DNA of 62,928 nucleotides, taken from the NCBI GenBank assembly GCA_016201735.1, contig JACQCH010000002.1:1-62928 (forward strand), read 5' to 3'. The notes beneath the pieces were generated by a model. The model was not told the origin of the DNA, did not search any database, and saw nothing but the letters and a program-made list of their open reading frames with translations. The stretch is from Candidatus Omnitrophota bacterium (GTDB lineage Bacteria > Omnitrophota > Gorgyraeia > 1-14-0-20-64-10). A program made the position numbers and the translations under genes. Position 1 is the stretch's first letter, and each line of letters begins with the position of its first letter. Positions 2,525-62,672 of this stretch are shown piece after piece.

Positions 2525-3371
2525 GAAAAATATACCACTGCGTTGGATAGCGGCGGATGTATCTCTCCATGACTTCCAAGCAGGCCTGGCTGATCTGGCG
2601 CACCGCCTCTTCACGCTTCAAATCGGGCGGGACGGTGATGGGGCGCTCGAGGATAAACCGGTAGCGCCCACCCGGTTCCCGCACCAGGAAGCCGGGAACA
2701 ATCGGAGCCCTGGTTCTTAGATAAAAAGCGGCCGGGCCAGTTGGAACATCCAGCCACTTGCCGAAGAAAGGGAGTTTCAAACCATGATTGGAGAAATCCC
2801 GGTCGCCGACCAAGGCAAGAATCTGGTTGTTCCGAAGAACCGACAGGGCCGATTCAAAGAAAGACCTCCGACCGGCTTGGGTCAACGGGATCCCCCTGAC
2901 CCCTACCCGGCCCCTCTGCCTTTCAAAGAAAGCGTTCACGCGAGGGTTCCGGTGCGTCAGCACCACCGCATTCACCGGCAGTCCCGAGAGAGCCAGGACA
3001 GCCCCGGCCAGCTCGTAATTCCCCAGATGAGCCGTCAATCCGATCGCTCCCCGTCCGGATCGAAGAACCTCCCGCATCCAGTCCAATCCTTCGATCGTCA
3101 CCTGTTGTCTCATCTTCTCCGGGGAGAGCCGCTGGAAGCGGAAAAAATCGACCAGGTATTTCCCAAAATTTCGGAACACCTCCCGCACTTGGGCTTCGGA
3201 AACCTCCCGGGTTCCAAGGATCTGTTCCAGGTTGTGCCGGACTCCTTCCCGGTCCTTGGCGCACCACAAGCACCAGAAGTCGGCCAGCCGGCAGGCGATC
3301 CAATAGGAAACCGATCTCGGCAGAAGCAGGGTTCCCCATGAACCAATCCAATACAGCGCGTAGAAAAACAC
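2487..3371 (-). CDS. LpxL/HtrB-family lipid A (lysophospholipid) acyltransferase
   Basis: 294-aa ORF with GTG start. Length and the C-terminal YPTQWYIFHDFW resemble the lauroyl/myristoyl acyltransferase family. Confidence 0.7.
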   Translation of the reverse strand: MFFYALYWIGSWGTLLLPRSVSYWIACRLADFWCLWCAKDREGVRHNLEQILGTREVSEAQVREVFRNFGKYLVDFFRFQRLSPEKMRQQVTIEGLDWMREVLRSGRGAIGLTAHLGNYELAGAVLALSGLPVNAVVLTHRNPRVNAFFERQRGRVGVRGIPLTQAGRRSFFESALSVLRNNQILALVGDRDFSNHGLKLPFFGKWLDVPTGPAAFYLRTRAPIVPGFLVREPGGRYRFILERPITVPPDLKREEAVRQISQACLEVMERYIRRYPTQWYIFHDFWTPGPSVIL

Positions 3372-4514: not shown

Positions 4515-5702
4515 TTACGAATTAATTTCCAGAATCTTCTGGATTCTCTCCAGGGCGATCTTCAGCCGGGGCTCCGGCTCGACCAGGGCAAACCGGACGT
4601 ATCCTTCTCCGTATTCGCCGAAACCGGTTCCGGGCGCCGTCACGAGCCCTGCTTCATCCACCAGGAGCTGCGCAAATTCCAGAGAGGTCAGGGCGCTGAA
4701 CTTCGGCGGGATATGGGCCCAAATGTAGAAGGTGGCCTTCGGCAGAGGAACCTTCCAGCCGATATCGTTCAACCCTTTGACAAACAGGTCCCGGCGCTTC
4801 CGGTAGATCTCCACCAGATCCTTGACGTAATCCTGCGGGCCGGTCAAGGCCTTGATCGCCGCCATCTGGACCGCCCGGAAGATTCCGAAGTCGATGTACG
4901 ATTTGGTTTTCTCCAAGGAGCGGAGGATCTGGGCGTTGCCGACCACCCATCCGACCCGCCAGCCGGCCATGTTGTAGCTCTTGGAGCAGGTGTGGAACTC
5001 GATGCAGTACCCCTGCCGAGCCCCTTTGACCTGAAGCAGGCTCGGCGCCTTGTACCCGTCGAACACGATGTCGGAGTAAGCCAGGTCGGAACAAAGAATC
5101 AACTCCTTCCCTTTTCCCCAATCCACCAGTTCCTTGTAGAAATCCAGATCCACGCAGGCGGTGGTGGGATTGTGAGGGTAGCTGACGAAAAGGATCTTCG
5201 CCATCCGGACCACTTCTTTGCTCAGCGCCTTGAAGTTGGGCTTGAAATTATTCTCGGGGCCGATCGGAACGTTGTAGAGGATCCCTCCGGCCATGATGAC
5301 GCCGTTCTCATGGACCGGATAGGCGGGGTTGGGCACCAGGCCGATGTCGTCGTTATTTAAGAAGGCCAGGGACAGATGGGCGATCCCTTCCTTCGACCCG
5401 ATCAGGGGAAGGACTTCGGTCTTCGGATCCAAGGAAACATTGAACCGCTGCTCGTACCAGGAAGCGATCGCCTCCCGAAACTTCTCCTCCACGTCGCCGT
5501 GCGGACGGGAATAGCGCTGGTTCTCAACCGCCCGGGCGGCCCGGCAGAGCTCTTCCACAACATGGGGGGGGCTGGGCAAATCGGGGTTCCCCATTCCCAA
5601 ATCAATCACGTCCACTCCCCGGGCCTTCGCCTTGGATTTAAGCTCATCCATGATGGTGAAGAGATATAGAGGGAGCCGCTTCATTCGATTCGCTTCTTGC
5701 AT
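4515..5702 (-). CDS. Class I PLP-dependent aminotransferase (AlaC-like)
   Basis: 395-aa ORF. RLPLYLF..DELK..GVDVIDLGMGNPDLPSPPHVVEEL resembles the E. coli AlaC N-terminus. The start may be the ATG 18 nt downstream. Confidence 0.8.
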   Translation of the reverse strand: MQEANRMKRLPLYLFTIMDELKSKAKARGVDVIDLGMGNPDLPSPPHVVEELCRAARAVENQRYSRPHGDVEEKFREAIASWYEQRFNVSLDPKTEVLPLIGSKEGIAHLSLAFLNNDDIGLVPNPAYPVHENGVIMAGGILYNVPIGPENNFKPNFKALSKEVVRMAKILFVSYPHNPTTACVDLDFYKELVDWGKGKELILCSDLAYSDIVFDGYKAPSLLQVKGARQGYCIEFHTCSKSYNMAGWRVGWVVGNAQILRSLEKTKSYIDFGIFRAVQMAAIKALTGPQDYVKDLVEIYRKRRDLFVKGLNDIGWKVPLPKATFYIWAHIPPKFSALTSLEFAQLLVDEAGLVTAPGTGFGEYGEGYVRFALVEPEPRLKIALERIQKILEINS

Positions 5703-13454: not shown

Positions 13455-13676
13455 TCACGACCGCGTCCGGAAGGTAATCCGTCCGCGCATCAAATCATAG
13501 GGGGATAATTCCACCGTCACTTTGTCGCCGGGCAGGATTCGGATAAAATGCATCCTCATCTTGCCCGCCACATGCGCTAAGATCTTGTGGCCATTCTCCA
13601 GTTCCACCCGAAACCTCGCGTTGGGAAGCGCCTCCATGACAATCCCCTCAACCTGAATCGCCTCTTCTTTTGGCAT
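13455..13676 (-). CDS. infA: Translation initiation factor IF-1
   Basis: 73 aa; [28 protein letters not shown]. Confidence 0.95.
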
Positions 13677-14422
13677 CAGATCCTAGTGAGAATCTCCGGC
13701 CCCGATTCGGTGACCGCCACCGTGTGCTCAAAGTGGGCGGACAGTTTCCGGTCCTTGGTGACTGCCGTCCAGCCATCGGCCAGGACCTCCACCGCCGCTC
13801 CCCCCTGGTTCACCATCGGCTCGATCGCCAACACCATCCCTTCTTTGAGGACGGGGCCGAAACCGGGCTTCCCGTAGTTGGGAATCTGGGGCGGTTCGTG
13901 AAGTTCCGTCCCGATCCCGTGCCCGACAAAGTCCCTCACGACAGAATAGCCGCGCGACTCCACCGTTCTCTGGACCGCATGAGAGATGTCGGACAGCCGG
14001 TTCCCCGGCCGGGCAAAGGCGATTCCCTCAGCGAGGGCGGCCTGAGTCACCGCCATCAGATCCGCCGCCTCCTGAGAAATCTGCCCCACGGCAACGGTAA
14101 CGGCCGCATCCCCGAAGTAACCCTCAACCGTGGCCCCGACATCCAATCCCACAATGTCCCCTTCCTTCAGTTTCCGGCGAGAGGGAATCCCATGAACCAC
14201 CTCTTCATTGACCGAGGCGCAGATGTTTCCGGGAAACCCCCGGTACCCTTTGAAGGCAGGCTTTCCCCCTTCTTGGCGGATCTTCTCGCCGGCCATCTCA
14301 TCCAACTCGGCGGTGGTGATTCCCGGCCGGACCTCTTTTTTCAACATCTCAATCACCTTCGCCACGATTCGGCCCGCCTCCCTCATCCTTTCCAGCTGAC
14401 TTGGACTCTTTAATTCAATCAC
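13676..14422 (-). CDS. map: Methionine aminopeptidase type I
   Basis: ORF trimmed to the GTG at 14422 ([17 protein letters not shown]), preceded by GGAGGGG. The longer ORF reads through repeat copy A. Confidence 0.88.
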
Positions 14423-16640: not shown

Positions 16641-17052
16641 TTTTGATCTTTTCTAAAGCCGACTTCGAGAACTGGTGCGCCTTGACCGTCAGCGGATGCG
16701 CCAGGGAGCCGTCTCCAAGAATCTTCACCCGGACCTGCTTGGAGCGGATCAGCCCCGCTTCCGCCAGGACCGCCGGATCCACGACGGACGCCGCGGGGAA
16801 TCGGTTCAAATCTCTTAAGTTCACGATCTCCAGCAGTGTCCGCTTCAGATGCACGAATCCCCGTTTGGGCACTCGGCGGGCCAAAGGCATCTGGCCCCCT
16901 TCGAACTCGGGTCTCAGACCCGGACCGGAACGGGCCCGCTGGCCCTTGATTCCACGACCGGAGGTCTTCCCATGCCCGGAAGACTCTCCGAAACCCCTCC
17001 GCTTCTTTCGATGGGTCGCTCCCTTCGGAGCCGGAATCTCACCCAGCTTCAT
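16612..17052 (-). CDS. rplO: Ribosomal protein L15
   Basis: [18 protein letters not shown] motif; overlaps the secY start. Confidence 0.94.
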
Positions 17053-17615
17053 TGGGCTATCTCCTCTGTAACGTTTGTAACGTTCTGACGCAAAGCGATC
17101 ACATCTTGAGGATACGACAGGCTCTGAAGTCCCTGGATCGTCGCCCGAACCACGTTAATGACGTTATTGGAACCCAGGGATTTCGTGAGGATGTCCCGGA
17201 TCCCCGCCGACTCGCAGACCGCCCGAACCGTCCCCCCAGCGATAATTCCGGTGCCGGGACCCGCCGGCTTTAAAAGGACACGGGAAGCCGAATACTCCCC
17301 GATCACCTCATGAGGAATCGTCCCTTTCTCCATCGGAACACGGAACATTGCCTTGCGGGCCTGGCCCAGCCCTTTACGGATCGCATCGGCAACTTCATTG
17401 GCCTTGCCCAAGGCCCAGCCGACCTGCCCTTTTCCATCCCCCACGATAACCAAAGCGCTGAAGGAAAGCCGCTTGCCCCCCTTGGTCACCTTGGCGACCC
17501 GGTTGATGGCAACCACCTTCTCAATGAAATTGGACTGCAGCTGCTGCCCTGGACCTCCCCGCTGCGGACCTCCTCCGCGCTGCGGACCCCCGCCCCCTCT
17601 CTGTTGGCGCGCCAT
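17049..17615 (-). CDS. rpsE: Ribosomal protein S5 with an RGG/PQRGG-rich N-terminus
   Basis: [24 protein letters not shown] core. Confidence 0.95.
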
Positions 17616-23842: not shown

Positions 23843-24126
23843 CAGACAGCGACCTCAATTTTGGATCCCTCAGCCAGCGTCACCGCCGCTTTCTTCCAGT
23901 CCGGCTTTAAACCCCAGCGGGCCCCGACACGGCGGGGTTTGCCTGAAACGACAGCGGTGTTAACGCAGTTTACCTTCACCTTGAACAACTGCTCCACCGC
24001 CCGTCGAATCTCCGGTTTGGTCGCTTTAAGATCCACCACAAAGAAATATTTCCGCTGGGCGGCCTGCTTGGTTCCTTTCTCGGTCCGGAGCATCTGCCGG
24101 ATGACATCTTCCGCGACTCGGCTCAC
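23842..24126 (-). CDS. rplW: Ribosomal protein L23
   Basis: 94 aa with GTG start, 8 nt after GGAGGG contributed by the family-2 element. Confidence 0.92.
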
Positions 24127-24131
24127 CGTAC

Positions 24132-24274
24132 GCGCCCTCCGGCCGCCCTCTGGCGGCCTTCGGGTCGGCCTCCCGCCGTGCTGTCGCTCGGCCCGACGGC
24201 CTCGCTTTTCCTCGCTCCGCTCGGCGCACGGCTCCCCTGAACCGCTGAATAAGGGAAAAAACTGCAGCGGTTCA
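24132..24274. repeat. Family-2 intergenic element, copy 1 (between rplD and rplW)
   Basis: About nine-tenths identical by eye to 37988..38131. In RNA sense it starts with TGAACCGCTG..CAGCGGTTCA (its TGA is the rplD stop) and ends with GGCCGCC-AGAG-GGCGGCC followed by GGAGGGCGC. Confidence 0.8.
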
Positions 24275-24895
24275 GCATGAAACCCGCGCCTCCAATTGCT
24301 TCAACCCCTCAGACGTCACCACCATCTGATGGTGGGACAGAACATCGTAGCAGTTCAAATCGGACGCCGGCTTGACCGCCACACGCGGCAAGTTCCTGGA
24401 GATCCGGACCAAGAGAGGACTCGGTCGATCCGTCACCAGCAGAGCTCCCTTCTCCACTTTCATCTCCTGAAGAAGCCGCCCCAACGCTTTTGTCTTCGGC
24501 TGCAGCTGCTCGAAGCTCTCCACCGCCTTCACCGCCTGATCGGACACCTTCGCCTTCAAACTTTCCACCAGCGCCTTGCGCCGGATCTGGGCGGGCAATT
24601 GGTACCGGTATTCCCGCGGATGCGGTCCAAAAACGATCCCTCCTCCGCGCCAGAGGGGAGAACGGATCGAACCAGCGCGCGCGCGCCCGGTATGTTTTTG
24701 AGCCCACGGTTTCTTTCCTCCGCCGGAAACTTCCCCCCGGGTCTTGGTATCCGCCGTCCCCTGCCTCTGGTTCGCCAGATACATCCGGACCGCCTGCCAC
24801 AGCACGGCCTTATCCGCAGGACCCTCCAAGGATTTCGGCAGCGGGAGGGATCCGATTTTTTGGCCTTCCAGATTATGCAGATCGATCTCCGGCAT
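24272..24895 (-). CDS. rplD: Ribosomal protein L4
   Basis: 207 aa; GGGKKPWAQKHTGRARAGSIRSPLWRGGG motif. Confidence 0.96.
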   Translation of the reverse strand: MPEIDLHNLEGQKIGSLPLPKSLEGPADKAVLWQAVRMYLANQRQGTADTKTRGEVSGGGKKPWAQKHTGRARAGSIRSPLWRGGGIVFGPHPREYRYQLPAQIRRKALVESLKAKVSDQAVKAVESFEQLQPKTKALGRLLQEMKVEKGALLVTDRPSPLLVRISRNLPRVAVKPASDLNCYDVLSHHQMVVTSEGLKQLEARVSC

Positions 24896-25662
24896 TATTT
24901 CTTCTCCTTGGCGGCCGCGGGGGCTTTGGGAGCAGGCGCCTTGGCGGCTGCCGCTTTCGCAGCCGGCGCTTTTGCCGCCTGGGGAGCACCCGCCTTCTTC
25001 TTTACCTGAGGAGCGTGCACCACTTTAGGCGGCTTGCGTGATCTCCGGATCAACACAACTCCCTGATCATGGCCGGGAACCGCCCCCTTAACCAGCAGCA
25101 GATTTTCGGCGGCATCGACCCGGATCACCTCGAGGGCCTGCGTTGTCACCCGCTCTCCTCCCATTCGACCCGGCAGATGATGCCCTTTAAAAACCCGGGA
25201 AGGATTCGTGCTGGAACCGATCGAACCGGGAGCCCGGTGCGACATGGAGCCGTGCGTCTGCGGGCCTCCCTTCCAATGCCAACGCTTCACCCCTCCCTGA
25301 AACCCTTTCCCAATAGAAGTCCCCGTCACATCGATCCGATCTCCGGGCTTAAACAGATCAACGGTCACAGAAGACCCCACGGCAACCTGCTGATCGGCAG
25401 GAAGGCGAAATTCCCGCACCAGACGCTGTGGGGAAACGTTGGCCTTGGTGAACCGTCCCAAGAAAGGCTTGGAAATCCTCTTCGAATCCCCCGGCTCAAA
25501 ACCGAGCTGGACCGCTCGATAACCATCCTTTTCAGGAGTTTTCACCTGGACCACCGTGCAGGGGCCTGCCGCAAGAACGGTGACCGGAACCGGCCGGCCA
25601 TCCTCCCGGAAGATCTGCGCCATTCCCAGTTTTCGTCCTATCAATCCCAGCCCCGGTTTCAC
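24895..25662 (-). CDS. rplC: Ribosomal protein L3 with an A/K/P-rich C-terminal tail
   Basis: Trimmed to the GTG at 25662 (VKPGLGLIGRKLGMAQIF), preceded by GGAGGGG from MITE copy B. Confidence 0.9.
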   Translation of the reverse strand: MKPGLGLIGRKLGMAQIFREDGRPVPVTVLAAGPCTVVQVKTPEKDGYRAVQLGFEPGDSKRISKPFLGRFTKANVSPQRLVREFRLPADQQVAVGSSVTVDLFKPGDRIDVTGTSIGKGFQGGVKRWHWKGGPQTHGSMSHRAPGSIGSSTNPSRVFKGHHLPGRMGGERVTTQALEVIRVDAAENLLLVKGAVPGHDQGVVLIRRSRKPPKVVHAPQVKKKAGAPQAAKAPAAKAAAAKAPAPKAPAAAKEKK

Positions 25663-25801
25663 CCCGCCCCTCCCGAGTTCCGCTTCTCTCCCTGCAGGGA
25701 GAGAAGCACTGTGCCGAAGGCACAGATGCCCTCGGCTGTCTCCCACTTGAATCTTAAAGAATCCACCCCTCCTGCCGAGGGCATACCCCGGAGGGGCGGG
25801 G
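25662..25801. mobile_element. Family-1 MITE copy B (between rpsJ and rplC)
   Basis: TIRs at 25662-75 and 25788-801; TCA at 25659-61 and 25802-04. Hairpins CTTCTCTCCC-TGCA-GGGAGAGAAG, CTGTGCC-GAA-GGCACAG and GCCCTCGGC/GCCGAGGGC. Confidence 0.85.
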
Positions 25802-37347: not shown

Positions 37348-37983
37348 TTAAGATTTCGGTGTTATCGGGGCGCTCACCGACTCGCGCCCATCGCCAGACT
37401 CGGCCTCCTTATTCGTCGGCCGGCGATCCTTTTCCTTCATCTGAATGACCGCCCCCAGGGCCACTGCCAGAGAACGGATCGGTCCCTGCAACAAGAACGC
37501 CAGACTGCGAAGGGGAGATTGGATCACTCCGGCCAACTGGCTCAACAGAACTTCCCGCGGAGGAAGTTTCCCTAACACCACGACATCCTTCGATTCCAGG
37601 ATCTGCCCTTTTAAGACGCCTCCCTGCAGGACAAACCCTTCGTGATCCTTAGAGAATGTGGTCAAGAGCTTGCAGGCGGCTCCCAGTTCCCCCCGAATCG
37701 GGCTGATCCCGCAGGTTCCCTCCAGCTTTTTTTCCAAGGGAGCCCATCCCAATTCCCGGAAGGTCAACCGGCAGAGACTGTTCTTCACTACCAAGAAGTC
37801 CGCCTGCAGCGCCTTTAAGGCGTCGCGGAGATGATTCAGATCCCGGGTGGGGACCCGATCCATCTTGGCCACAAAAAGGATTTCGACTCCGGAGAGAGAT
37901 TCCTTTAAATCCCCAACCCATCCGGCCCGGACTTTCTGTCCCAGACGCAGAGGCCCTTTCTCCACGGAGTTCGCCTGTACCAT
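37348..37983 (-). CDS. rplJ: Ribosomal protein L10
   Basis: ATG at 37983, 7 nt after GGAGGG of the family-2 element (TTG at 37986 is also possible). Position upstream of rplL. Confidence 0.88.
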
Positions 37984-37987
37984 CAAT

Positions 37988-38131
37988 GCGCCCTCCGGCC
38001 GTCCTCTGGACGGCCTACGGGTCGGCCACCCGCCGTGCTGTCGCTCGGCCTGACGGCCTCGCTTTTCCTCGCTCCGCTCGGCGCACGGCTCCCATGAACC
38101 GCTGAATAAGGAAAAGAACTGCAGCGGTTCA
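37988..38131. repeat. Family-2 intergenic element, copy 2 (between rplA and rplJ)
   Basis: Same architecture as 24132..24274. The 3' hairpin here is GGCCGTCC-AGA-GGACGGCC, which differs from copy 1 by compensatory changes. Confidence 0.8.
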
Positions 38132-38824
38132 TCATTCTTCCGGTTTCCCTTCCGCCGGATCCAGCCGGATCCCAGGCCCCATCGTGCTCGAAAGAGCGAC
38201 CGATCGGACGTATCGTCCCTTCACCGAAGCCGGCTTTGCTTTCCAGAGGGCGGTCAAAAGAGCATGGGCATTCTCCTCCAAGGCCTCCTCCGGGAACGAC
38301 CGCTTGCCGATTCCCAGATGGATGTCCCCCTGCTTGTCCATCTTAAACTCCACCTTCCCCCCTTTGACTTCCTTCACCGCTCTGGCGACATCCATGGTGA
38401 CCGTGCCGGCCTTGGGACTGGGCATGAGGCCCCGGGGCCCCAGAAACTTTCCCAGCTTGCCCACCTCTTTCATCAGGTCCGGGGTCGAGACCACCACATC
38501 AAAATCGAGCCACCCTCCCTGGATCTTTTCGATCAGTTCTTCCGCTCCGACATGGTCGGCTCCGGCTTCCTTCGCCGCCCGCTCCATCTCTCCCTTGGCG
38601 AAGACCAGAACCTTCACCGATTTTCCGGTTCCATGGGGGAGGACGACCGTTCCCCGAACCGTGGCATCGGTCTGCTTCGGGTCCACGTCCAAATCAATGG
38701 CGATCTCGACCGACTCATCAAACTTTGGAGCGGGGGCCTTCTTCAAAAGGGATACCGCCTCCTTCAGGCCGTACCGCTTCCCCGGTTCCACCAGCTGCTG
38801 GGCGGCCGCGGTCCGCTTACTCAC
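38132..38824 (-). CDS. rplA: Ribosomal protein L1
   Basis: Trimmed to the GTG at 38824 (VSKRTAAAQQLVEPGKRYGLKEAV), preceded by GGAGGGG of MITE copy C. Confidence 0.9.
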   Translation of the reverse strand: MSKRTAAAQQLVEPGKRYGLKEAVSLLKKAPAPKFDESVEIAIDLDVDPKQTDATVRGTVVLPHGTGKSVKVLVFAKGEMERAAKEAGADHVGAEELIEKIQGGWLDFDVVVSTPDLMKEVGKLGKFLGPRGLMPSPKAGTVTMDVARAVKEVKGGKVEFKMDKQGDIHLGIGKRSFPEEALEENAHALLTALWKAKPASVKGRYVRSVALSSTMGPGIRLDPAEGKPEE

Positions 38825-39008
38825 CCCGCCCCTCCGGAGTCCCGTTTCCATCCCTGCAGGGATGGAAACGCTGTGCCGAAGGCACAGATGCCCTCGGCGG
38901 TCTCCCACTCCAATAGATCACCCTTTCCATAAAATACCTGTAGCAGATCCTTGGATCTTAAAGAATCCACCCCCCCTCTGCCGAGGGCATACTCCGGAGG
39001 GGCGGGGC
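38824..39008. mobile_element. Family-1 MITE copy C (between rplK and rplA), with an extra ~45-nt internal segment
   Basis: TIRs at 38824-37 and 38994-39007; TCA at 38821-23 and 39009-11. Shares GCCGAGGGCATCTGTGCCTTCGGCACAG with copy B (copy D has TTGGG in place of TTCGG). Confidence 0.85.
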
Positions 39009-47143: not shown

Positions 47144-47290
47144 CCCGCCCCTCCGGAGTGCCCCTGTCCTCTGGGTCTGCTATTCTGTGATATCACCCGA
47201 ATACCTCCAGCAGTCTGGTTGCATCCCGGCTGAGAGGACAGGGGCACTGTGCCCAAGGCACAGATGCCCTCGGCCCATCCTTCCACCCAG
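47143..47290. mobile_element. Family-1 MITE copy D, one-ended/variant (between folP and cdaA)
   Basis: TIR at 47143-56 with TCA at 47140-42. Core GCCGAGGGCATCTGTGCCTTGGGCACAG is present. It has a different long hairpin, AGTGCCCCTGTCCTCT/AGAGGACAGGGGCACT. The far TIR is absent. Confidence 0.7.
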
Positions 47291-58130: not shown

Positions 58131-61100
58131 TTACGCGTAGAGGTAAAGCTTGCGCTGGCCGGCCTTCTCTTCGACCTCGAAGCCGAGAACGATCCCTCCG
58201 GCCTGCCGGATCGCCGCCAGCACGACGGCCAGATCCCGGGGGGTATTCCTCAACTTGTCGAGCGCGGACAAAACAGCCGGAGTCATCACGATACCGGGGG
58301 TCTTGCGGCCTTCGAGAATCTTAGTCCACGCTTCAACGTCATCCCCGGCAACTTTCGGGTCAACGAGCGCAAGATCTGTCGCCCCAGCGTTTTTGCCCGC
58401 GAGAAAACCTTCCGCTTCCTTTAGACCAGGCGGCAAGGGCAAGGTCTCACGAACCAGTTCCCGTTCCCGCCACACCGCCGGAACAATCTCCTCACCATGT
58501 GTAAAAATCCGGCCAATGGCGGCGACAGCCGCTGGATTGATATCGCTCAATTGATTCAAATCAATCTCAAGGGTTATCTTCTTTCCCGCCGCCACATTTA
58601 AGTTGGGTATAACCTGGTCATCCGCCAGCTCGGTTCCATTCTTAAAGAGTCCTTCGTACTGGGTGGTCGCAGCCGCGATCCGCGCCTCCACTTCCTCCAA
58701 ACCGGCAGATAGCTTTTCCACCACCTTGGTCTTCCCTTCATCATCAATCTCGATGATCTTAAGAACCCGTTTAGCCGCCTCCTTGGCACCTTTGTCTTTG
58801 TAAGTTTTCAGGAATTCATCGAATTGGTCCTTCTCCATGATCAGGACGGCACGTCCAACCGTCTCTTTCCCTTTAAAGGGAGATCGATCGACTGTCTTGA
58901 CCGTCACGCGGCCTTTCGTGCTCACACGATGCATGGCTTTACGATTATCAAAGGGTTGAATATACCAACTGTCTGTTTTAATAAACGGAACCCCAACGAG
59001 TTCTTTCCCGACCAGCTCTTTGGGAAGGAGAAGGTCCAGGGTAATTTCCAACGCGGTAAATTTCGTCGCCTTATCGTCCTTGACACCAAACTCTTTGGCC
59101 GGCTGAATCGGTTTCCCAGGCATTTCGGATTTAGCCCGGACAATGACGGTGAGAATCCGGTGAGCCGTCACAGGACTGGCCGTATGGATGTAAACCCCTC
59201 CCACACGATCTCGGTCGTCTTTCATGGCCTTGTAAGCTTCAAGCAAAGCCGGACCAATTTCAGTCTCCTTGCCGAAGAAACTCGGAGTACCTACTTCCTT
59301 CTCGGGAATTGTCTCCACGCCAATCTGGAAGGTCACCTTCTCTTCTTTCGTCCGCGCGCGCACAGTCTCAGAGACATCCGCTATCCCTTTTGCTGTATCT
59401 CGATAGGTCATCGCAGCGATCTCGGTTTTTTCAAGAGTACGCAATCCCTTTACCGTAACACCACTGTCAGTTTTATGATCATTCTCATACCAAAAAGGCT
59501 CAAAGCGGGTCAGGAGAGGTCCTCTGACCACGCTCTTTCCGTCCGGGTGCCGCTTTTGGCGGGCAAACGCCTGAACTCGTGGCAGGATGACACCTTCAAG
59601 CAAATCCATGTAACCTTTCAAGTCGCCTTTCCACCCTTTTTGAGTATAGGGTTCAATATCCGTTGCAAAAGCGATTTGAAGTTTGCCTAAGTTGAGCCGG
59701 GCTAGCCTGACTGTTAAATCCTGATAGTGGCTGGCGACAAATAGTCGGTTTTCAGCCCAATCATGATTTCCATCGATGAAGCCCAAGGTCTTCAAACCTG
59801 CTTGGGAAGCCTGGGTGAGCAGCGCTTGCTGTTGCTGAGCTGTAAGCTGCCGAAAACGGAATCCGCTGATCCAGACGACGTCTACACCTGTTTTAACCGC
59901 TAGTGAGAAGAAATCCTTGAGACGAAACAAATCTCTGGGATCCCAAATAATAATTCCGAGTTGTTTATCTGTTCCTAATTCCTTCCGTAAATCCGCCAGA
60001 GCGCCTACTGGACCTGTGCTTATCTGGGCTTGAGCCAAGCCATAAAATTCAGGAACCAACGTTGCTGTAATCCCGCCCGCTGCAGCAGCTTTTAAGAAAT
60101 TACGTCGAGATATACCATAACCGGTACGCTCCTCCAAACCGGCGGCATTGGATTTGGAACGGGACCACTCTTCAACATATCCCATGTTGTCCCGGTAATG
60201 ATTGCGCGAACCGGTCAGGATCATGGAGACATCCGGATTGTTCAACAGTCTGAAATAACTTTCCTTTTCGGTGATGGACCGGTCGCCTTTGCGGATGACC
60301 GAGTTGAGCACAATGGCCTTGCCATCCGCCCGAAGCGCCCGAACCAGATCGGGACGTTTCAGAAAGACAGGGCCGGGCATCTGGATAACATCGAAAGGAG
60401 AAAGCAGATTCTCCCGAACGGCTTCCTCCAGCACCTCCTCTCCAGAGATGGAAGCCCCGAGGAACCGGATCCCTCCATGTCTTTCTTTCTTCATCCGAAC
60501 CATTTCGTCCACGATGGGATGATCCCGAAAAACATCAGCCGTGGCACCGCCCACCATGTGGATATAGAGAAGGTCGATCCTGCCCAGATATTTCATGCTT
60601 TGGGCAACCGATTCTTGCAGATTGGAGACCGAGTAATCGGACCGGAACTTCCACTGATCCTTAATTTCTTTCGAAGAATCGTAGGTCTGTTGTTCTCCCC
60701 ATTTCGTGGCGATGAAGGCCCTTTTGAATCTTTCTGGCCGCGATCGAAAATACTCGCCCAGCTTCTCTTCTGTGAAGCCATACGAAGCGGCGGTATCAAT
60801 CATCACCACCCCATTTCGATTCGGCACTCGATCAAATACCTGATCCAGATACGCATCGATCTCCTGCTTCTCTGGATAGGTATAGGAAGCAATGTTATCT
60901 GGTGTCCATGGCCGGCCCATCCAAATGGTTCCAGCCCCCAGAACATGAAACTGAAGGCCGGTCCCACCAAATTCCCGAATCACTCCCTCCTCCAGGCCGG
61001 CTTCTTTTTTCGGCGCGGGCACAACTTCGGTCATGTGGGCCTCTTGATCGATGAGATAGAATTTATCATCAACCACCATAAGGACTTCTTTCTGATCCGG

Positions 61101-62672
61101 GCTCAATCCACGAATCACCGTCTCATCCACTGTAAATTTCGGCGGCGGGATGGGTCGGCCTTCTCTTTCAAGGCGCTCTCTAAAAATGATACCTATGTCC
61201 TGTTTAAAATGAATAACGGGGACGTAGTCTTGATCCTGAGGATGAAGACGCATCATCACAGTCACGATCGAACGATCCCGGGACATGGCACGCGAAACCC
61301 TGCCAGACAAGGGATGCGCTCTCCTCCCTTCAAGACTCATCACATCCTTCTCTGAAAAGACTGGAGCCACGACGCCGGTAGCAGAGTAGAGTACGGCAGC
61401 CGCTGTCTCGGCATCGTCTGCCGTACGAATCGGCTTGAATTTATTCAGAGAAACTGGAACAGGAGCTGGCGCCGCTGGGAGAGGGGGAGCGGGTCGTTTG
61501 GGCGACAGCACGAAGACAGTCCCATCTTTTTCAATATCCAAAATAAGTCGCACTCCCGATACGTTTGCAATAATCTCATCGAGGGGTAACCCTCTGGCAG
61601 ATGCGGAATAGAGCATTTCCCCCTCTGCAGGGGTGTTTGCGACGACAACAATGCGCCGCTCTATCACGTACCAGCTCTCATCCGGATCCTTTTCCAACCC
61701 TCTCGGCACCTCAAACGACACAACGCCGTCCCCCGGCGTTCGGCGCGGAAAAGGTCGCCTCACCGTCCATCTTTGATCACCCGGCCTGTCCCTGGGAGGA
61801 CGTAAACCGTAGACGGGGTTCGACAGGAAACCGTTCGGAAACCGCACGGTAAGGTCTCCTGAATTTTGATCCACAACCGCCTTAAAAAGAGGCGAGGGGG
61901 AAGAGTCGAAGCCCGGGATCCGAACTGCAGGAACTGCCGGTCTGGAAAGCTTATTGTAGGTAGCGAGACCAGCGACAGTGGCGGTTGCTCCAACTGCAGT
62001 TCCAACGGCACCCGCCAGCAATTCCCTCCGCGTAATTCCCTTCTCCTCCTCCATCCCGGCGGCGGGCGGGGCATCCCCGAGCGAACGACCTATGATGGTT
62101 GCGAAGGTCCGGTCCCTCGGTATGAGTCGGCTGTCGCCACCGACGATGGTGATGGTCAGGTCGAACAGCGTCGGCTTGTATTCGGCGATCAGTTTGTCCA
62201 GATCCTTGAACCCCTCCCACGGCCTATTCAAGGCGAACGACGTACCACCATCCACTTCCCCTGACTCGTCGTGGTAGACGAATCCCCAAGGCAGGTAACT
62301 GCTCAACTCAGCCTTCAGCTCCGAGACGCTGATCCCCGATTTCTCGAAGAGGACTTCCTCCCCGCCGGCGGTGGATGATGGACTCGACAAGGGGCTTAGA
62401 ACAGGCCGGATTGGAGCCGCCGAAGTGGAAGGGAGGCCAAGGGTAGCGCTGGCAAGATGGATAGCAGCTTTCCCGAAATCGTCAGGGTTGCCGGAACGGA
62501 GAGCTTGCTCTAAACCGGATAAAACCCCTTGTTCCTCCTCGGAAGGTTCCTGATTCCGCAGGGCCCCTCGGCTGAGCTCGGGGTAAACTCCGGCAGGGTT
62601 TGGCAGACCAAGCGCGAGGGATAAGGAAAGGGCTGTGAAACGGGTTATCAATCTTGGGTAACGGTTGTTCAC
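58131..62672 (-). CDS. 1513-aa modular protein: signal/TM N-terminus, five modules joined by A-G-(L/M)-E-E, central aldo-keto reductase module
   Basis: Single uninterrupted frame. Module 560-845 has AKR motifs (GTGLQF, DTAASYG, ATKWG, LLYIHMV). RRELLAG.. and SRRNFLKAAAAGG are Tat-signal-like segments at aa ~214 and ~855. GTG start; lower GC than neighbours. Confidence 0.75.
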   Translation of the reverse strand: MNNRYPRLITRFTALSLSLALGLPNPAGVYPELSRGALRNQEPSEEEQGVLSGLEQALRSGNPDDFGKAAIHLASATLGLPSTSAAPIRPVLSPLSSPSSTAGGEEVLFEKSGISVSELKAELSSYLPWGFVYHDESGEVDGGTSFALNRPWEGFKDLDKLIAEYKPTLFDLTITIVGGDSRLIPRDRTFATIIGRSLGDAPPAAGMEEEKGITRRELLAGAVGTAVGATATVAGLATYNKLSRPAVPAVRIPGFDSSPSPLFKAVVDQNSGDLTVRFPNGFLSNPVYGLRPPRDRPGDQRWTVRRPFPRRTPGDGVVSFEVPRGLEKDPDESWYVIERRIVVVANTPAEGEMLYSASARGLPLDEIIANVSGVRLILDIEKDGTVFVLSPKRPAPPLPAAPAPVPVSLNKFKPIRTADDAETAAAVLYSATGVVAPVFSEKDVMSLEGRRAHPLSGRVSRAMSRDRSIVTVMMRLHPQDQDYVPVIHFKQDIGIIFRERLEREGRPIPPPKFTVDETVIRGLSPDQKEVLMVVDDKFYLIDQEAHMTEVVPAPKKEAGLEEGVIREFGGTGLQFHVLGAGTIWMGRPWTPDNIASYTYPEKQEIDAYLDQVFDRVPNRNGVVMIDTAASYGFTEEKLGEYFRSRPERFKRAFIATKWGEQQTYDSSKEIKDQWKFRSDYSVSNLQESVAQSMKYLGRIDLLYIHMVGGATADVFRDHPIVDEMVRMKKERHGGIRFLGASISGEEVLEEAVRENLLSPFDVIQMPGPVFLKRPDLVRALRADGKAIVLNSVIRKGDRSITEKESYFRLLNNPDVSMILTGSRNHYRDNMGYVEEWSRSKSNAAGLEERTGYGISRRNFLKAAAAGGITATLVPEFYGLAQAQISTGPVGALADLRKELGTDKQLGIIIWDPRDLFRLKDFFSLAVKTGVDVVWISGFRFRQLTAQQQQALLTQASQAGLKTLGFIDGNHDWAENRLFVASHYQDLTVRLARLNLGKLQIAFATDIEPYTQKGWKGDLKGYMDLLEGVILPRVQAFARQKRHPDGKSVVRGPLLTRFEPFWYENDHKTDSGVTVKGLRTLEKTEIAAMTYRDTAKGIADVSETVRARTKEEKVTFQIGVETIPEKEVGTPSFFGKETEIGPALLEAYKAMKDDRDRVGGVYIHTASPVTAHRILTVIVRAKSEMPGKPIQPAKEFGVKDDKATKFTALEITLDLLLPKELVGKELVGVPFIKTDSWYIQPFDNRKAMHRVSTKGRVTVKTVDRSPFKGKETVGRAVLIMEKDQFDEFLKTYKDKGAKEAAKRVLKIIEIDDEGKTKVVEKLSAGLEEVEARIAAATTQYEGLFKNGTELADDQVIPNLNVAAGKKITLEIDLNQLSDINPAAVAAIGRIFTHGEEIVPAVWRERELVRETLPLPPGLKEAEGFLAGKNAGATDLALVDPKVAGDDVEAWTKILEGRKTPGIVMTPAVLSALDKLRNTPRDLAVVLAAIRQAGGIVLGFEVEEKAGQRKLYLYA

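Follow-up and report, generated by a model that had tools for sequence, protein, structure and literature searches.

The DNA window analysed here, the first 62,928 nucleotides (nt) of contig JACQCH010000002.1 from a Candidatus Omnitrophota bacterium, carries two copies of a short repeat inside its ribosomal-protein operons, one between rplD and rplW and the other between rplA and rplJ. We consider it probable that these copies represent a structured interspersed repeat of ~145 nt that is non-autonomous, belongs to Candidatus Omnitrophota from groundwater, lacks terminal inverted repeats (TIRs) and is tolerated at these junctions because translational coupling of the flanking genes is preserved. 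The closest RpoC proteins are 85–89% identical to that of the window, the named ones being annotated as Candidatus Omnitrophica or Omnitrophota, and the window's own DNA occurs in groundwater metagenomes. On the minus strand, which is the RNA sense of both copies, the genes follow the order tuf, secE, nusG, rplK, rplA, rplJ, rplL, rpoB, rpoC, rpsL, rpsG, fusA, rpsJ, rplC, rplD, rplW, rplB and onward.

Copy 1 (c1) occupies positions 24132–24275 and copy 2 (c2) positions 37988–38132, the two being 94% identical. The same identity was obtained when the repeat was paired over 24154–24278 and 38011–38135, and in the MAFFT alignment it extends from 24132/37988 to ~24277/38134. A covariance model of the family matched c1 at 24130–24277 with 165 bits and c2 with 161 bits, and the window has exactly two occurrences of a 20-mer taken from the core, where 0.02 would be expected from shuffled sequences. 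Seven more full-length copies (142–164 bits) were found at unrelated loci and in both orientations, bringing the set analysed here to nine assembled copies: c1, c2, L017, L021, L033, L034, L058, L059 (= L060) and L061 (= L062). L017 lies antisense between a gene for a PIN/TRAM-domain protein and ispD; L021 (CAYJTM010000041.1) is in the sense orientation between trpA and a mannose-1-phosphate guanylyltransferase-like gene; L033 is sense at the 3' end of a tail-fibre-like open reading frame (ORF); and L034, L058, L059 and L061 are antisense within large ORFs, 42–102 nt from their called 5' ends. In Logan contigs from sequencing runs X1 and X2, the core of the repeat has a depth of ~216 versus ~16 for its flanks (~14-fold), and on exiting the repeat the contigs continue into many different flanks. 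Runs X5–X8, from another study, display the same pattern and add at least 8 further distinct 3' flanks. The repeat is therefore a dispersed family rather than a locus-specific leader, in agreement with an earlier sequence-only reading of this DNA, which had described two near-identical segments as a second repeat family and had taken confinement to these two loci as the mark of a regulatory leader. In assembled public data the family is rare: a 20-mer scan of genome contigs gave real matches in 2 of 31, two scans of metagenome contigs gave 0 and 1 matches, scans of viral contigs returned chance matches only, BLAST searches of plasmids and phages returned none, and a six-frame chimeric peptide query and a sense-frame profile recovered P0001 and P0122 only.

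Each copy consists of three parts, namely an 11-base-pair (bp) hairpin whose 17-nt loop is rich in pyrimidines, a conserved core, and a hairpin of 7–8 bp followed directly by GGAGGGCGC. In c1, the 5' hairpin (P1, 24237–24275), delimited from sequence and fold, has the stem CTGAACCGCTG/CAGCGGTTCAG; its counterpart in c2 (38094–38132) has the stem ATGAACCGCTG/CAGCGGTTCAT. The outermost pair is compensated between the copies, C–G in c1 and A–T in c2, so that the hairpin, perfect as previously described, is one pair longer than the 10 bp then assigned to it. The stop codon of rplD (TGA, 24274–24272) lies inside P1 of c1, and in c2 the corresponding TGA (38131–38129) is a second in-frame stop after that of rplA (38134–38132), both as read earlier. 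The core (approximately 24163–24232 in c1) is bounded in the RNAalifold structure of the nine copies by the P2 closing stem GCCGTGC/GCACGGC, which surrounds the small hairpins P3 and P4. The 3' domain of c1 (24132–24169) comprises an outer stem, P5, in which GCCGACCC pairs with GGGAGGGCGC, the hairpin P6 (GGCCGCC-AGAG-GGCGGCC, 24158–24141) and the terminal GGAGGGCGC (24140–24132). In the 3' part of c2 (37988–38015), the hairpin GGCCGTCC-AGA-GGACGGCC (38015–37997) is likewise followed by GGAGGGCGC (37996–37988), the two 3' hairpins differing by compensatory changes, as the sequence-only reading had pointed out. The 3' terminus is invariant across the nine copies except in L021 and L059 (GAAGGGCGC and GGAAGGCGC). 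The GTG of rplW (24126) follows GGAGGGCGC by 5 nt and its GGAGG core by 9 nt, and the ATG of rplJ (37983) follows them by 4 and 8 nt; the spacing of 7–8 nt from the terminal motif given earlier is thus to be revised, while the proposal that the element donates GGAGG stands. The 3' GGAGG is an intrinsic and conserved part of the element, located at the appropriate distance from rplW and rplJ for a putative Shine-Dalgarno sequence.

The nine-copy alignment folds into six helices: P1, P2 enclosing P3 and P4, P5, and P6. Fourteen of the 43 predicted pairs have changed on both sides and nevertheless remain paired, and such changes are distributed over five of the six helices, with 9 of 13 pairs in P1, two compensated pairs in P2 and one in P3; the support for P2, P3 and P5 comes from few events, mostly contributed by L059. 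Standard pairs fill 98.4% of the alignment cells, compared with 34–44% after sliding of the partners, and none of 500 shuffles attained the observed pairing values. Further variants of P6, such as GCCCCGC-TGGA-GCGGGGC, are present in the Logan contigs. Since G–T mismatches outnumber A–C mismatches 9:2, the strand as written here (minus in the window) is the one that folds. Core identity between copies in different genomes amounts to 80–96%, and the P1 region is only 41–82% identical between copies with its pairing retained. Covariation of this kind does not discriminate between RNA and single-stranded DNA, because hairpin-templated repair of DNA palindromes would also produce it. In the predicted fold, the GGAGG would be held within the P5 stem. 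An additional pseudoknot between the pyrimidine-rich loop of P1 and a purine tract of the core, which by eye looked compensated in L021 and L034, was rejected, because low-complexity complementarity accounts for the pairing: 93% of positions were paired versus 67–83% with slid partners, and 147 of 500 shuffles equalled this value.

Both window copies are derived insertions into formerly overlapping junctions, as judged by comparison of the ribosomal-protein operons across seven relatives (L035, L036, L037, L054, L055, L056 and L057), most of which overlap there and none of which has the element in these operons. At rplD/rplW, four of five relatives (L035, L036, L055 and L057) have a 4-nt ATGA overlap without any spacer, the exception being L054, which holds an unrelated inverted-repeat element. 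At rplA/rplJ, the overlap is likewise 4 nt in five of seven (L035, L036, L037, L055 and L056), with gaps of 2 nt in L054 and 41 nt in L057. Neither nhmmer nor the covariance model detected the element anywhere in the fetched operons of the seven relatives. The suggestion of the sequence-only reading that an ancestral coupled junction had been interrupted is thereby extended to both loci: on this comparison, rplD/rplW and rplA/rplJ were originally overlapping and translationally coupled, and both junctions are now derived. A strain in run X6 that is ~93% identical in rplW carries copy 1, yet an X6 contig whose rplJ is 97% identical departs from the window sequence immediately upstream of codon 3 and is missing the element end, which in this allele (30 nt of which are visible) is replaced by GTGAGCCCAAAGGGTTCCCAGGTTCTCGAT followed by GCGAAC, against window positions 37975–37990; the first rplJ codons adjoining c2 differ from those of this element-free allele. 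The presence of copy 1 at rplW together with an rplJ contig devoid of the copy 2 end suggests that copy 2 appears to be polymorphic or younger than copy 1. The 5' arm common to c1 and c2 (xTGAACCGCTG) coincides with the start of rplW in the relatives (ATGAAYCGSC) in identical register, because of which the c1 arm TGAACCGC may be ancestral target sequence rather than a stop codon donated by the element. However, a third copy, seen in Logan contigs, also has the TGAACCGC arm, so that this arm may merely mark a subfamily.

A feature beyond those described in the sequence-only reading, as is the covarying structure over the whole length, is an ORF that bridges each insertion. Six-frame translation of c1 reveals 51 codons on the minus strand (24123–24278), whose ATG (24278–24276) overlaps the end of rplD (ATGCTGA) and whose TGA (24125–24123) overlaps the GTG of rplW (GTGA); this frame is shorter than the 60-amino-acid (aa) cut-off used in ORF calling. 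The ORF in c2 (37983–38135, minus strand, 50 codons) starts on an ATG (38135–38133) overlapping the rplA stop (ATGA) and terminates on a TGA (37985–37983) overlapping the rplJ ATG (TGATG). The same frame is open in L021 and L033, where it ends on the downstream start (ATGCGTAA in L021 and GTGA in L033). This geometry suggests how coupling could survive the insertion. Ribosomes finishing rplD or rplA would re-initiate on the ATG that overlaps the stop, and their passage along the stop-free frame of 50–51 codons would melt the helices of the element, including P6 and P5, the stem predicted to sequester the 3' GGAGG. Termination would then take place on the TGA overlapping the rplW GTG or the rplJ ATG, and the freed GGAGG, 8–9 nt upstream, would assist re-initiation at rplW or rplJ. 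Insertions would be tolerated in essential operons because the ORF and the GGAGG keep the downstream gene translated; translation of the bridging ORFs, and coupling through them, are what we infer from the arrangement of these signals.

Several observations weigh against this interpretation. No RNA runs containing the locus were found. With a G+C content of ~70%, stop-free frames in the element are partly expected by chance. Preservation of coupling cannot be the general role of the element, since only four of the nine assembled copies are in the sense orientation relative to their neighbours; among these, the element end and the downstream start are separated by 16 nt in L021 and by 35 nt in L033, and L033 has another GGAGG within this interval. 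The number of independent insertions is also smaller than the number of copies: L034, L058, L059 and L061 share the marker substitution GGCCATC, an upstream promoter-like motif and homologous protein sequence past the element, and with such homologous flanks they are counted as one lineage and not as four insertions. No mobilising enzyme was found in the window or in the DNA around the copies. Finally, core conservation of 80–96% combined with covariation over the whole length exceeds the needs of a decaying selfish repeat and may point to an additional function.

The left flanks of the nine copies have only GG in common (six of nine) and no shared tetranucleotide. Left and right flanks, when matched, obtain scores no higher than those of mismatched pairs, L021 excepted. 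A fixed-length target-site duplication was accordingly rejected, L021 alone being significant against the mismatched-pair null; the flank comparison showed no duplication at c1, c2, L017 or L034, so that the earlier statement that the element lacks target duplications holds for the two window copies and fails for L021. In L021 (183–404), the element lies between 30-nt near-perfect direct repeats, GGGC[A/G]ATCATCATGGCCGGCGGAAGCGGGG, and the guanylyltransferase-like gene downstream has its first ~50 nt in two versions, whose start-proximal parts have diverged (MTKPKLWAIIMAGGSG and MRKKTRLWAIIMAGGSG); this duplication could also be a co-assembly artefact. L033 has a borderline 12-nt repeat, TGGAGG[C/G]TGGTC, across its left boundary. 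In the relative L056 (1871–2010), a ~104-nt insertion is found at the 3' end of a tRNA-Trp gene (1814–1889) with an 18-nt perfect direct repeat, GAATCCCTCCTGGCCTGG, and it includes GGGAGGGATTCGAA, the reverse complement of 13 nt of the T-arm of the upstream tRNA. This insertion has short blocks in common with the repeat family, but was not accepted as a member given its weak covariance-model score (23.5 bits, E-value = 0.006) and an ambiguous MAFFT alignment. Regarding a partner enzyme, Pfam assigned housekeeping domains to 18 of the 20 window ORFs scanned and nothing to the other 2, and inspection of the ORFs beside the other copies revealed no transposase-like ORF. The missing partner means little, because the 63-kb window is all of the host genome that was covered. 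That the fold is conserved on one strand suggests an intermediate that is single-stranded, either DNA or RNA, and is recognised in trans.

One alternative is a palindrome-associated transposable element with its origin in an insertion sequence of the IS200/IS605 type. Such an element would move in the form of single-stranded DNA, through a Y1 transposase TnpA that recognises the subterminal hairpins, and insert 3' of a short target, the link that the sequence-only reading had raised. The element resembles these in having hairpins near both ends of one strand (P1 and P6) and in lacking TIRs and a fixed target duplication; no duplication is seen at c1, c2, L017 or L034, and there are flanking repeats of 30 nt at L021 and, borderline, of 12 nt at L033. 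The asymmetry of wobble pairs between strands fits single-strand folding, and the strand that folds coincides with the coding strand of ribosomal-protein operons, which, being usually co-directional with replication, would make it the lagging-strand template. Nevertheless, the left flanks share GG and not a target of 4–5 nt, the end hairpins are dissimilar (an 11-bp stem with a 17-nt loop versus 7–8 bp with a 3–4-nt loop) and their variants do not co-vary, conserved internal helices covary too, which recognition by TnpA does not need, no Y1 or TnpB gene is seen in the 20 window ORFs scanned or in the neighbourhood of the other copies, and L021 has its 30-nt flanking repeat. The features examined here do not support the link, and we consider this origin unlikely. 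An element that the host keeps for its function as a structured RNA module (a small RNA, a processing or stability element, or a translational coupler) and that spread by recombination would account for covariation over the whole length, for the inclusion of GGAGG in a covarying stem, and for cores of c1 and L017 that are 96% identical across genomes when host RpoC is at most 89% identical. Against it stand the lack of any Rfam family match, the lack of a conserved promoter or terminator accompanying the element, the antisense orientation of five of the nine copies to the neighbouring gene, the presence of the same junctions without the element in close relatives, and the failure of the proposed pairing between the P1 loop and the purine tract; its probability, in our estimate, is low as well.

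Movement could alternatively involve copying rather than cut-and-paste, either by template switching where hairpins stall replication forks or by reverse-transcribing a read-through transcript. This route would involve microhomology in the 5' arm, 3' flanks that are carried over and target duplications of variable length. The 30-nt direct repeat and the second, diverged version of the 5' end of the gene downstream at L021, the 12-nt repeat over the left boundary of L033, the 18-nt perfect repeat around the possible distant relative at tRNA-Trp in L056, the match of the c1/c2 5' arm to the rplW start of relatives, and the first rplJ codons at c2, unlike those of the element-free allele, are all in line with it. 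Yet L021 alone is significant and c1, c2, L017 and L034 show nothing, L056 reaches only 23.5 bits, the TGAACCGC arm of the third Logan copy is possibly a subfamily mark, no reverse transcriptase was seen, and much of the pattern was spotted post hoc, so that we give this route little credence. Comparably speculative is the idea of a mobile structured nucleic acid whose fold, as RNA or single-stranded DNA, would be active in an undescribed copying process that favours overlaps of stop and start codons or the 5' ends of genes, and in which the 5' hairpin, evolving fast, would contribute to the selection of targets. Hints in this direction are the c1/c2 arm that equals the ancestral rplW start, the L033 arm variant that matches its flank, and the L056 arm of the possible relative, which is the tRNA itself. 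A conserved cis-regulatory leader, that is, an autoregulatory site of the L10 or L4 type, is suggested by the position of both structured window copies ahead of ribosomal-protein genes, but we regard it as almost certainly wrong. Rfam returned no match at the gathering score for the whole window and none at E-values up to 10 for both loci, which disposes of the known ribosomal-protein leader that the sequence-only reading had kept in view and of other known RNAs; relatives mostly have no spacer at rplD/rplW and rplA/rplJ; and the distribution at unrelated loci refutes a leader, the other copies adjoining ispD, trpA/manC, a tail-fibre-like gene and genes for giant secreted proteins.

Compared with described repeats, the non-autonomous element with preserved coupling that we favour has its nearest precedent, by analogy, in the interspersed repetitive units of mycobacteria (MIRUs). 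MIRUs are short repeats at gene junctions inside operons, and the MIRU ORF overlaps the upstream stop and the downstream start (−4 spacing) with little effect on expression (PMC12548453). Both c1 (ATGCTGA...GTGA) and c2 (ATGA...TGATG) have this geometry and lie in the sense orientation between co-oriented operon genes. MIRUs are units of 46–101 bp, often in tandem arrays; the repeat described here is a single unit of 145 nt, with no tandem copies in the window, has a covarying multi-helix fold, occurs also antisense and inside called ORFs, and belongs to another phylum, no sequence relation being apparent, although no direct comparison of the sequences was made. Rickettsia palindromic elements, of ~100–150 bp and with strong secondary structure, are intergenic or lie in frame within protein-coding genes, and in the called ORFs of L034, L058, L059 and L061, 147 nt of the repeat are similarly in frame. 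In this case too there is no sequence relation, and the in-frame cases have homologous flanks and may represent one inherited event, and these ORFs may not start upstream of the element. The behaviour of the element is comparable to that of MIRUs and Rickettsia palindromic elements, but it is a member of neither family. The four ORFs concerned (L034 1795–2877, L058 366–10928, L059 3001–8334 and L061 1215–3659) are otherwise unrelated, encode 360–3520 aa and share one 5' module, composed of the promoter-like motif ATCAGGxAxACTTA, a signal-peptide-like start and the antisense repeat as 49 in-frame codons, followed by (A)MRSxNAG..ESPV or ALR..AGLEE. In these genes the repeat may be translated in frame, or the real ORF may start downstream of it.

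Other classes of repeat were set aside. Repetitive extragenic palindromic (REP) sequences and their doublets (REPINs) do not fit a unit of 145 nt rather than 20–40 nt that has no GTAG head and no doublets. Guide RNAs of transposons, that is, the omega RNA of TnpB/IscB and the bridge RNA of IS110, were discarded for want of a cognate gene in the stretches of DNA covered around the nine copies, and the HEARO family of Rfam had no match to the window. A classical miniature inverted-repeat transposable element was rejected as well, because the 5' end CTGGGCCGCC does not match the reverse complement of the 3' end GCGCCCTCCGG, which agrees with the earlier remark that TIRs are lacking; the recurrence of an internal GGCCGCC in some copies is the only likeness of this kind between the ends.

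A family of that classical kind does occur in the same window. Its copies, at 25659–25801, at 38821–39007 and, partially, at 47236–47274, include those at the rpsJ/rplC and rplK/rplA junctions, and have TIRs of 12–13 nt (CCCCGCCCCTCC...GGAGGGGCGGGG) and a TGA(G) duplication. The terminal G and the duplicated TGA recreate the GTGA start of rplC and rplA, for which GGAGGGG serves as the Shine-Dalgarno sequence. The 3' terminus of the 145-nt family (CCGGAGGGCGC) resembles the right inverted repeat of this family (CCGGAGGGGCGGGG). At rplD/rplW, L054, the closest relative by RpoC (89%), holds a 128-nt unrelated element (16974–17108 in GCA_964372955.1, CAYJTC010000031.1) that has CCCCACCACCTC...GGAGGTGGTGGGG as inverted repeats and duplicates TGA, and here a bridging ORF of 44 aa has been called that overlaps rplD and rplW by 4 nt each. 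The bridging pattern, as read from these junctions, recurs with unrelated inverted-repeat elements. These and the 145-nt family are alike in occurring in the same genomes, in their xTGA stop/start site, in a subterminal hairpin that precedes a 3' end rich in GGAGG and in the bridging ORF; they differ in that the 145-nt family has neither the TIRs nor the TGA(G) duplication. L054 also has enlarged spacers at rplK/rplA (340 nt) and rpsJ/rplC (223 nt). Enlarged spacers were further observed in L035 and L055, at rpsG/fusA (138 nt, 13671–13809), rplK/rplA (80 nt, 3155–3235) and rplL/rpoB (127 nt, 4876–5003), and may hold further junction repeats that are not of the 145-nt family. Away from these junctions, the window contains on its minus strand (58131–62672) an ORF of 1513 aa, in which Pfam recognises a single domain, an aldo/keto reductase domain spanning residues 607–796, and nothing in the remainder.

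Insertions in the most conserved and tightly coupled bacterial operons are rare, and here at least four junctions within ~17 kb of ribosomal-protein and RNA polymerase operons bear repeats of two families, with a relative adding a third at rplD/rplW. They provide a natural series for studying how translational coupling survives the insertion of 130–190 nt of structured RNA between overlapping genes. With a stop-free frame, start and stop overlaps and their own ribosome-binding site, such repeats bear on the question whether certain repeats in bacteria evolved neutrality to operon polarity, and the conserved core and whole-length covariation, without linked known mobilisation machinery, point to a possible undescribed mechanism in a little-studied phylum.

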